Virus record (IMG/VR): IMGVR_UViG_2687453188_000002
From: a virus
Taxonomy: Duplodnaviria > Heunggongvirae > Uroviricota > Caudoviricetes
Strand: one strand, 5' to 3'
DNA: 47,998 nucleotides
Shown piece by piece: positions 23,389-23,717 of the stretch. A program made the position numbers and the translations under genes. Position 1 is the stretch's first letter. Each line of letters opens with the position of its first letter. The notes under the pieces are model-generated. The model was not told the DNA's origin and did no database searches. It worked only from the letters and a program-made list of their open reading frames with translations.

Positions 23389-23571
23389 ATGGCGAAGTAT
23401 AAACGAATTCTGTTGAGGTTGACTATGAAAAATGGCCTTGAACTGAAAGCGCCTGTAACTGATGACATCAGCAGAGCACTGGCTTTTGCCATTAAGTGGG
23501 TGGCGGTCGGTGTTGCTGTGTTCCCGATGCTGTATGGGCTGGCAAAACTGGTCATTGCGTTGAAATCGTGA
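23389..23571 (+). CDS. Small hypothetical membrane-associated protein
   Basis: 60 aa from ATG behind a GGGAGA Shine-Dalgarno; hydrophobic C-terminus ([22 protein letters not shown]). Confidence 0.35.
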
Positions 23572-23585
23572 AGGGAGGATTAAGC

Positions 23586-23717
23586 ATGTCAGACAAACTC
23601 ATAACGCTGGCGAAGATCCTCTGTGTAATTGTCGGCATTTCATTTTCACTAATGCTGGTTGCTCTTTTTCTTTCCATGGCCTGGATGATGTTGTCTTCGT
23701 CGGGGTTGCTGGGGTGA
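23586..23717 (+). CDS. Small hypothetical transmembrane protein
   Basis: 43 aa ([43 protein letters not shown]) behind a GGGAGGA Shine-Dalgarno; stop overlaps the Rz start. Confidence 0.35.

Follow-up and report, generated by a model that had tools for sequence, protein, structure and literature searches.

What are two small open reading frames (ORFs) doing between the endolysin gene R and the spanin gene Rz of a phage lysis cassette, and are they genes at all? The textbook cassette consists of a holin, an endolysin, and the spanins Rz and Rz1, and host lysis releases both phage and Shiga toxin (Stx) from Stx lysogens. The two ORFs, here called ORF60 and ORF43, lie in a 47,998-nt stretch of DNA (IMG/VR record IMGVR_UViG_2687453188_000002; the window), a lambdoid, Stx-phage-like, stx-less prophage of Escherichia coli O104:H4. 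An earlier annotation made from the letters alone (the sequence-only reading) had suggested that they could encode antiholin-like peptides, lysis-timing modulators, or superinfection-exclusion peptides. Based on comparisons with related loci, we very much favor the view that both are genuine genes. Our preferred reading, which we hold tentatively, is that they encode late-expressed accessory membrane peptides that may modulate lysis, with ORF43 coupled to Rz.

Size alone is no evidence for either gene, given that 54 ORFs of at least 25 amino acids (aa) overlap the surrounding 4-kb stretch. The coordinates and lengths in the sequence-only reading were accurate, each frame running from ATG to TGA (Table 1). 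The pair is present in 990 of 5,426 complete E. coli genomes (at least 80% query coverage), and PhiR5_2 and PhiR12_x, temperate phages that form plaques, carry it too. Identical copies of ORF43 were found on at least 1,000 contigs. Across about 90 related loci, the frames are intact in all 21 unique ORF60 DNA variants and all 11 ORF43 variants, and polymorphism is skewed to third codon positions (28/24/47 over the three positions in ORF60 and 13/7/18 in ORF43). For both, the annotated frame has the lowest ratio of nonsynonymous to synonymous substitution (dN/dS) among the three plus-strand frames. At the same loci, this ratio was 0.19 for ORF60, 0.44 for ORF43, 0.10 for R, and 0.31 for Rz, with ranges across estimates of 0.19 to 0.27 (ORF60) and 0.36 to 0.44 (ORF43). 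The conservation in related cassettes that the sequence-only reading had looked to was thus found, with every unique variant intact and dN/dS below 0.45, and both peptides are, by this codon-level measure, under purifying selection. We dismissed a 126-aa minus-strand ORF (23175-23555) as a shadow of ORF60. The two frames share their wobble positions, from which this ORF inherits its low dN/dS (0.26). It also runs through both the terminator and the end of R, and its Salmonella version is short and has no start codon.

Both peptides can be placed in the membrane with high confidence. The sequence-only reading had given a single hydrophobic helix as a trait of ORF43; ORF43 has one, and so does ORF60, at its C terminus (residues ~30 to 58; best 19-residue Kyte-Doolittle mean, 2.07). 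AlphaFold2 predicted ORF60 helices at residues 2 to 15 and 22 to 59, with a predicted local distance difference test score of ~87 to 90 over the second. The layout is tail anchored, with a basic N-terminal extension (residues 1 to 12, net charge +4), a linker, and the transmembrane (TM) helix. ORF43 begins with MSDK, is hydrophobic from residue 11 to 36, and is predicted to be single pass with almost no soluble part. Its N-terminal two-thirds is conserved, with K4, G17, S19, and F20 invariant, and the motif G17xxxS21 is also conserved. The two peptides are unrelated to each other. Of the strong Shine-Dalgarno (SD) sequences that had been claimed for both, the one of ORF43 (AAGGGAGGA, 6-nt spacing, anti-SD duplex of -11.3 kcal/mol) deserves the description; ORF60 has a GGGAG with a duplex of -8.4 kcal/mol, but it stands only 2 to 3 nt from the ATG, a suboptimal spacing. 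Overall, the earlier picture of small membrane-peptide genes in a lysis cassette holds up: they are conserved, lie on the late-operon strand, and have no promoter-like site of their own.

The position between endolysin and Rz was likewise described correctly, except that R and ORF60 are not adjacent: a 156-nt spacer (23233-23388) that contains a strong hairpin separates them. The GC content is 0.46 in the spacer and 0.46 to 0.475 over the spacer, ORF60, and ORF43, compared with 0.53 in R and 0.55 in Rz. By composition and by comparison with canonical cassettes, in which R and Rz overlap by 4 nt, ORF60 and ORF43 are a low-GC insertion. We then asked how general such insertions are, using 160 loci chosen solely by Rz similarity, of which 75 form a 933W-like set selected by similarity to the Rz of phage 933W. 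In 66 of the 68 lambda/P22-like loci, the start of Rz shares 4 nt (ATGA) with the end of a long upstream gene, usually an endolysin and including the signal-anchor-release (SAR) endolysin family to which R belongs. In the 933W-like set, a small TM ORF has its stop at +1, +7, -4, or +11 nt of the Rz start in 72 of 75. Counting R, other long genes (such as a methyltransferase gene), and small ORFs together, 244 of 248 loci have some ORF whose end lies at -4 to +11 nt relative to the start of Rz. Nearly all sampled 933W-type cassettes (72/75) carry one to four extra conserved membrane-peptide genes before Rz, genes that lack annotation in 933W itself and in the majority of Stx-phage records.

The small peptides before Rz fall into five sequence types, each of which encodes a TM helix: type A (the ORF60 type), type B (the ORF43 type, MSDKLITL...), type C (...AFAIRIVAIAVLVWAIRWW), type D (...WKFILIW...GQIRWW), and type E (...WKFLLVW...IVAIKG). 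Types A and C are homologous, being joined both by hybrids (P0113, a 37-aa form) and by profile search. The types combine as A-B, ant-B, C, D, A-C, E-B-A'-C, A-B-A'-C, and A-B-methyltransferase, and dN/dS is as low as 0.12 to 0.19 in two of the families. At three loci (L084, L218, and L223), a 311-aa DNA-methyltransferase-like gene separates ORF43 from Rz and shares 4 nt with the latter. The Qin prophage of K-12 has neither ORF60 nor ORF43, and its rrrQ and rzpQ genes overlap. As far as such comparisons reach, these arrangements show that the R-Rz gap is a recurrent site of cargo insertion that apparently preserves coupling, and the ORF60/ORF43 locus exemplifies an insertion-like feature that is general among Stx-type lysis cassettes.

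ORF43 belongs to this feature most closely. Its family is limited to E. coli and Shigella, and a tblastn search found the ORF43 type in 276 phage records, almost all of them Stx-converting phages and mostly without an annotated feature. It always adjoins Rz, save where the methyltransferase gene intervenes, and was never seen away from Rz. In phage 933W (AF125520; locus L094, 4439-4570), an unannotated homologue lies between ant and Rz, and it is annotated (EDL933_1392) only in the re-annotated EDL933 genome. The supplementary PredictProtein table of an earlier EDL933 study (PMC4765031) gives EDL933_1392 one TM helix and an inner-membrane location, although that entry served there as a length-matched control and is not evidence of translation. 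Of 72 loci with enough upstream flank, 71 combine ORF43 with a pinholin of the S21 type and an endolysin of the SAR type, in a sample that is biased by lineage. On these comparisons, ORF43 may have a role in lysis timing at the inner membrane.

The sequence-only reading had the ORF43 stop overlapping the Rz start. This is so if Rz begins at GTG 23714, which overlaps the ORF43 TGA in the string GTGA; it is not so for the ATG at 23729 chosen by the Prokaryotic Genome Annotation Pipeline (PGAP), which lies 11 nt past the stop. The GTG start retains the N-terminal Asn-Arg of other Rz proteins (MNRV.., MSRV.., MNRI..), and the ATG start loses it. With either start, the geometry fits termination-reinitiation coupling, and we consider it somewhat probable that translation of Rz is coupled to that of ORF43.

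ORF60 has a wider distribution. Its family was found in E. coli, E. marmotae, Salmonella, Klebsiella, Serratia, Enterobacter, and Yersinia, and a search of 1.8 billion representative proteins yielded only ~25 clusters of it (50% identity). This range was taken from protein searches because scans of genome contigs were unproductive: a profile scan confirmed nothing, and a degenerate DNA pattern matched three Firmicutes by chance. Met13 of ORF60 is nearly invariant, the family is conserved from Met13 on, and many homologues of 45 to 50 aa start there. Where the 12-residue basic extension is present, it is kept even in distant members (e.g., YRKTFRLRIS and YRKFFRMRLS). A GAGG stands 6 nt before Met13; this, together with the conservation from Met13 on, makes it plausible that ORF60 has two in-frame starts giving products of 60 and 48 aa. 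In O104:H4, codon 45 of ORF60 (23521-23523) encodes Phe, in place of the Ser (or, in three Salmonella loci, Leu) found in 86 of 90 related loci. Ser45 is part of a small-xxx-small motif, G41xxxS45, and the S45F change could alter function.

The genes around the ORF60 family vary. In Salmonella, the family gene stands alone, directly before Rz, in cassettes of three different holin/endolysin combinations, and homologues accompany holins of PF04971, PF16080, and PF05106; there are also copies with no holin nearby. In Klebsiella and Serratia, the gene is found within a baseplate gene cluster, and some other E. coli, Salmonella, and Enterobacter strains have it at the end of the prophage, behind the genes for tail-fibre assembly. 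Tail-end copies such as the one at locus L265 have terminators downstream. A remnant in Yersinia enterocolitica (L258-L260, 2501-3101) consists of only a 49-aa ORF60-family gene and Rz, 1 nt apart, beside host genes. The pair appears to be fixed in the species because the exact 49-aa protein occurs on at least 1,000 contigs.

Lysis, baseplate, and tail-end copies share one anatomy, consisting of a G+C hairpin with A and T runs, a 30- to 90-nt leader, and the ORF, which we found in E. coli, Salmonella, Klebsiella, Serratia, and Enterobacter. The Yersinia remnant is the exception, with a different upstream inverted repeat that has no T run. These observations show in part that ORF60 is a member of a portable Enterobacterales cassette made up of a predicted hairpin terminator, a leader, and a two-start ORF. 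Three different versions of the inner stem and loop in E. coli and Salmonella all keep the hairpin pairing, and the T run is as good on the minus-strand side as on the plus side or better. In two Salmonella loci (L086/L091, ~2978-3003), the leader also contains a mini-ORF, MCREVCSL*, whose stop overlaps the GTG start of the small TM ORF (GTGA), and in a D-type cassette (L210, ~279-320), the mini-ORF VFDFSKLIREI* is followed immediately by GTGATG. Such leader mini-ORFs suggest possible chains of translational coupling.

The 5' end of ORF60 is conserved beyond what the protein explains. Pooled across six lineages, the proportion of synonymous sites that differ (pS) is 0.72, near saturation, in the ORF60 core and 0.24 in codons 3 to 13, and between E. 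coli and Salmonella it is zero in those codons. The rare Arg codons CGA and AGG in this block are invariant. The few silent changes are confined to three adjacent codons (Ile-Leu-Leu) and lie in the spacer of a promoter-like site on the minus strand. This substitution pattern demonstrates constraint at the nucleotide level in codons 3 to 13. The promoter-like site consists of TAGTCA, an 18-nt spacer, and TATACT, and its -10 element is the consensus TATAAT in Klebsiella, Serratia, and Enterobacter. Promoter-like scores of at least 9/12 were reached in 15 of 16 unique family leaders, compared with 2.5% of random 48-nt windows, with diverged copies reaching that score through other -35 solutions (TGGACA-18, TAGACA-18, TTGGCC-16, and TTTACC-16).

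Minus-strand transcription from ~23389 would run antisense across the ORF60 start codon, SD sequence, and leader and would end at the hairpin and its U run. The predicted ~75-nt RNA folds as two hairpins (-21.5 kcal/mol, z = -3.5), and eight contexts preserve the order of promoter, variable body, and terminator; the fold of the plus-strand leader RNA is not significant (z = -1.3). At a permissive threshold, Rfam gave no family for the antisense RNA, and its only match was a sub-threshold, terminator-like rimP leader (E = 0.52; minus strand, 23313-23387). Nothing comparable was found at ORF43. We regard a cis-antisense RNA at ORF60 as a real possibility, although we lean against its existence. 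If these candidate elements are real, the 5' end of ORF60 would be a compact case of overlapping information, with protein code, internal start, and antisense promoter within 33 nt.

Turning to expression, a scan of the plus strand gave no promoter-like site from 22776 to 25131; the terminator at 23323-23355 stands in front of ORF60. Q-modified RNA polymerase reads through intrinsic terminators of lambdoid late operons. Because the two ORFs have no plus-strand promoter-like site of their own and have a terminator upstream, we think it likely that they are made only during Q-antiterminated late transcription, together with S, R, Rz, and Rz1. Ribosomes ending ORF43 would then re-initiate on Rz/Rz1, in place of the canonical 4-nt R-Rz overlap. 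The peptides would insert in the inner membrane and, without being essential, assist or modulate the part of lysis that takes place there, possible targets being membrane depolarisation, holin triggering, SAR-endolysin release, and spanin function. The output of ORF60 would probably be held down by a cis-antisense RNA begun within its first codons. By analogy, antisense and dual-start control is what would be expected for a membrane-harmful peptide, antisense repression being typical of membrane-toxic peptides.

Several observations weigh against parts of this reading. Copies of the ORF60 family in tail-fibre and baseplate modules, far from lysis genes, argue against a lysis-specific role. Promoter-like matches are common (7 found and 7.1 expected in the region), the -35 element TAGTCA with its 18-nt spacer is poor, and the conserved 5' block might instead serve initiation at the internal Met13, which is the main alternative to an antisense RNA. 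ORF43 is the less constrained of the two; its C-terminal third is mosaic, and its C-terminal half is frameshifted in several loci. The argument for Rz coupling is one of geometry, and R too has no detectable SD, so a weak SD is no proof of dependence on coupling. Finally, in ribosome profiling of uninduced EDL933, the 933W homologue of ORF43 was not among 72 novel translated ORFs (PMC4765031). This absence is weak evidence because late genes are silent without induction.

Other explanations have to be weighed against the preferred one. Because the ORF60 family occurs in tail modules, two of them that do not involve lysis stay alive. ORF60 and its predicted antisense RNA could be a new type I toxin-antitoxin-like selfish or abortive module that serves maintenance or defence and lies in late operons by chance. 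The peptide is hydrophobic and of no more than 60 aa, the conserved minus-strand promoter-like site and terminator would yield a cis-antisense RNA over the ribosome-binding site, and the cassette is portable over lysis, baseplate, and tail-end positions and over genera. The family gene has also been retained with Rz in the fixed Y. enterocolitica prophage remnant, and prophage type I toxins, such as hokW-sokW, are well known. We nevertheless judge this unlikely, as no sense-strand promoter was found, the upstream hairpin would end sense transcripts, and toxicity and antisense RNA are both predictions. Furthermore, there was no Pfam or NCBIfam match to toxin families (Hok, Ldr, Ibs, TisB, ShoB, DinQ, and ZorO) and no PADLOC match, and ORF60-family motifs do not appear in the main text of the Fozo 2010 survey. 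Decidedly unlikely, in our estimation, is that the two genes are morons, cargo that helps the lysogen, for example through superinfection-exclusion or membrane-modifying peptides. They are inserted between conserved neighbours and have a GC content below theirs, the same spot takes up ant and methyltransferase genes, and the ORF60-family copies at prophage ends, past the tail-fibre assembly genes, occupy a classic cargo position. Small membrane morons such as HK97 gp15 do mediate exclusion. A moron would be expected to look different, however, from genes that have no upstream plus-strand promoter-like site, a terminator upstream rather than downstream, no PADLOC match, and, for ORF43, a position that abuts Rz and is never seen away from it; translation of the 933W copy is also unreported in uninduced EDL933.

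Another alternative is that the ORFs are mainly translational devices. As short leader cistrons with good initiation, they would recruit ribosomes downstream of the terminator-containing spacer and hand them on to Rz/Rz1, and it would matter little which peptide they encode. The 244 of 248 loci with an ORF ending close to the Rz start are consistent with this idea, as are SD-like 3' ends (..RWW-TGA and ..GGGGTGA) and the stop/start-overlapping mini-ORFs of Salmonella A-type and D-type leaders. We consider it improbable, given that all five sequence types encode a TM helix, that dN/dS is well under 1 (and lowest in the two families mentioned above), that ORF60 is not adjacent to Rz in the window, and that such genes come in arrays of two to four, with the ORF60 family also occurring without Rz nearby. 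Dedicated antiholins of the S21-type pinholin would also be found where ORF60 and ORF43 are, in a pinholin/SAR-endolysin cassette, on the late strand, and with a TM helix in both. The S21 association of ORF43 in 71 of 72 loci would fit, and the dual starts and +4 extension of ORF60 recall the logic of S107/S105. That association is confounded by lineage, and neither peptide has sequence similarity to holins or antiholins. In addition, the S21 pinholin already makes its own dual-start antiholin form (68/71), and ORF60 homologues occur with HP1-type and class III holins, with GH19 endolysins, or with no holin nearby. The antiholin role that had been suggested, if specific to one holin, is thus unlikely for ORF60, whose close homologues precede Rz in Salmonella with three holin/endolysin types and which has other copies in tail-fibre or baseplate modules, and for the pair as dedicated antiholins we find it highly improbable. 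Least credible, and disfavoured to the point of near dismissal, is the view that these are chance ORFs or decaying, functionless remnants. ORFs this short arise often, frameshifts are seen in some ORF43 copies, and the O104:H4 ORF60 carries S45F at a residue that is otherwise invariant, but frames are intact in 32 of 32 unique variants, third-position bias and dN/dS below 0.45 accompany conserved SDs, and ORF60 is conserved from E. coli to Serratia and Yersinia.

Accessory lysis peptides of the kind that we prefer have counterparts in known systems. In phage P2, LysA is a non-essential membrane protein, encoded between endolysin K and the Rz-like lysB, that is thought to tune lysis timing. Like ORF60 and ORF43, its gene is an accessory membrane-protein gene between endolysin and spanin genes, but LysA is much larger and polytopic, and the two peptides have no sequence relationship to it (no Pfam match). 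Dual-start holin/antiholin pairs include lambda S107/S105 and phage 21 S71/S68, in which the longer form has extra N-terminal positive charge. The Met1 and Met13 starts of ORF60 resemble these pairs in that the longer form adds a charge of +4. They differ in that the ORF60 extension is 12 residues rather than 2 to 3, the TM helix is C terminal, and the two starts are predicted only.

Mu releasin gp25 (DUF2730) has 99 aa, with an N-terminal TM domain (N-out, C-in) and a 73-aa acidic cytoplasmic domain (PMC9239132). Like ORF60 and ORF43, this small membrane protein is encoded no more than ~5 genes past a SAR endolysin, and it acts at the inner membrane to permit lysis; in contrast, the ORF60 helix is C terminal, ORF43 has no soluble domain, and neither matches DUF2730. 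Lcc6 of LambdaSo (65 aa, of no known family, a single TM at residues 5 to 22, and a 43-aa cytoplasmic tail) is needed, at the holin level, in a system with pinholin, SAR endolysin, and Rz-Rz1 (bioRxiv 10.1101/2024.01.23.576932). It shares size class and kind of lysis system with ORF60 and ORF43, a likeness known by description and not by sequence, whereas the TM of this Shewanella phage protein is N terminal and its gene lies far from the lysis genes, near xis. HokW-SokW of Stx2 phage Sp5, in which an antisense-repressed small membrane toxin aids lysis and phage release after induction (PMC8621323), is the nearest model in function for ORF60 with its predicted antisense RNA, as a small membrane peptide of a Stx-type prophage. 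Unlike hokW, ORF60 is not of the Hok/Gef family (no Pfam or NCBIfam match) and lies inside a late operon without its own promoter. As Mu gp25 and Lcc6 illustrate, SAR-endolysin systems can depend on small membrane proteins other than holin, endolysin, and spanins. ORF60 and ORF43 are not members of the LysA, releasin, Lcc6, Hok-type, or dual-start antiholin systems; by analogy, they may work like them.

A more far-reaching version of our preferred reading, which we put forward as speculation and consider rather unlikely as a whole, would make the ORF60 cassette a portable Enterobacterales late-operon module. Its two topological isoforms (48 and 60 aa) of a membrane-active peptide, the longer with the +4 extension, would be gated by a cis-antisense small RNA (sRNA) with its promoter encoded in the first codons of the peptide and its end at a shared bidirectional terminator, and it would serve as a type I-toxin-like lysis booster or timer, similar to HokW-SokW but unrelated in sequence. 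ORF43 would be its Rz-coupled partner in essentially all 933W-type Stx phages, influencing the release of toxin and phage.

Both genes were already in databases as hypothetical proteins (PGAP/RefSeq WP_001151822.1 for ORF60 and WP_001280932.1 for ORF43). Neither matched NCBIfam or Pfam (to an E value of 1, bar a sub-threshold DUF3930 match for ORF43), and PADLOC gave no defence-model match for ORF60, ORF43, or three related peptide types. The only profile matches, both significant and full length, were to PHROGs of unknown function, phrog_1115 for ORF60 and phrog_4906 for ORF43. Public names are limited to "hypothetical," "membrane protein," and "transmembrane protein," with UniProt calling ORF60 "Transmembrane protein," and the accession and PHROG numbers gave no hits in the literature. 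Judged by the literature searched, three things are new: the near-universal small TM ORF before Rz in 933W-type cassettes, the definition and range of the ORF60 cassette, and the overlapping nucleotide constraint with its predicted antisense RNA. The sequence-only reading had not included the second TM helix, the terminator, the generality of the arrangement (72/75), or the 5' nucleotide constraint and antisense promoter-like element of ORF60. Should the peptides tune depolarisation, the release of endolysin, or the expression of spanins, they would offer new handles on lysis timing and toxin release and would join the accessory lysis factors, a class opened only recently that includes Mu releasin, LambdaSo Lcc6, and HokW. 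If they are dispensable, the result is still an annotation fix and an example of operon insertions that preserve translational coupling.

The features of the lysis region are collected in Table 1. Over bases 23233-23720, the window has the same sequence as E. coli O104:H4 2011C-3493 (100% identity). H-19B, CP-1639, and many Stx1 and Stx2 phages share the first 155 nt downstream of R at ~86 to 90% and differ beyond that point.

Table 1. Positions in the window of the lysis genes, the two small ORFs, and the predicted elements around them
Feature	Positions	Strand	Remarks
S	21220-21435		S21-type pinholin
DUF1327 ORF	21440-22246		DUF1327/YdfR-containing
104-aa ORF	22256-22570	minus	phrog_1853; WP_000551290.1; GC 0.41; unknown function
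R, SAR-type endolysin, 177 aa	22699-23232	plus	Pfam Phage_lysozyme, 2.8e-25; phrog_7 endolysin; PGAP lysozyme
Post-R spacer	23233-23322	plus	Shared with many Stx phages and partly with Salmonella
Hairpin with A run and T run at flanks	23323-23355	both	Resembles a bidirectional intrinsic terminator; 13-pair stem by terminator scan
ORF60 leader with SD GGGAG	23356-23388	plus	Conserved between E. coli and Salmonella
ORF60, 60 aa	23389-23571	plus	ATG to TGA; phrog_1115, 7e-42
Possible internal-start isoform of ORF60, 48 aa	23425-23571	plus	From Met13; GAGG 6 nt upstream
Sigma-70 promoter-like site	23425-23396	minus	-35 TAGTCA (23425-23420), 18-nt spacer, -10 TATACT (23401-23396)
Predicted cis-antisense RNA, ~70-77 nt	23313-23389	minus	Deduced from promoter-like site and hairpin
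Intercistronic gap	23572-23585	plus	With the last ORF60 codons, carries the ORF43 SD AAGGGAGGA
ORF43, 43 aa	23586-23717	plus	ATG to TGA; phrog_4906, 2.1e-23
Rz i-spanin	GTG 23714 or ATG 23729, to 24187	plus	Pfam Phage_lysis, 7e-47
Rz1 o-spanin lipoprotein, embedded in Rz	23940-24125	plus	Lipobox-like LVVSAC and Pro-rich region in translation

Upstream of R, the ORF at 21440-22246 is intact and encodes 268 aa, with DUF1327 at the N terminus and residues 132 to 268 matching the C-terminal part of phrog_1085; PGAP labels it a truncated YdfR-family pseudogene despite the intact frame. The 104-aa minus-strand ORF is inserted between holin and endolysin and sets R apart from S. Further upstream, between a sialate esterase gene (19216-21069) and S, a terminator-like hairpin (21152-21180) lies within 21075-21215. 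A 2026 preprint (bioRxiv 10.64898/2026.05.13.724894) places the prophage sRNAs PasA and PasC at this position, which makes the hairpin a candidate by location. An Rfam scan gave no match here, and neither this preprint nor one on the small proteome of uropathogenic E. coli covers the R-Rz small-ORF locus. Downstream of Rz, another small hydrophobic ORF (24538-24678; 46 aa, WP_000347013.1) lies in a low-GC stretch.

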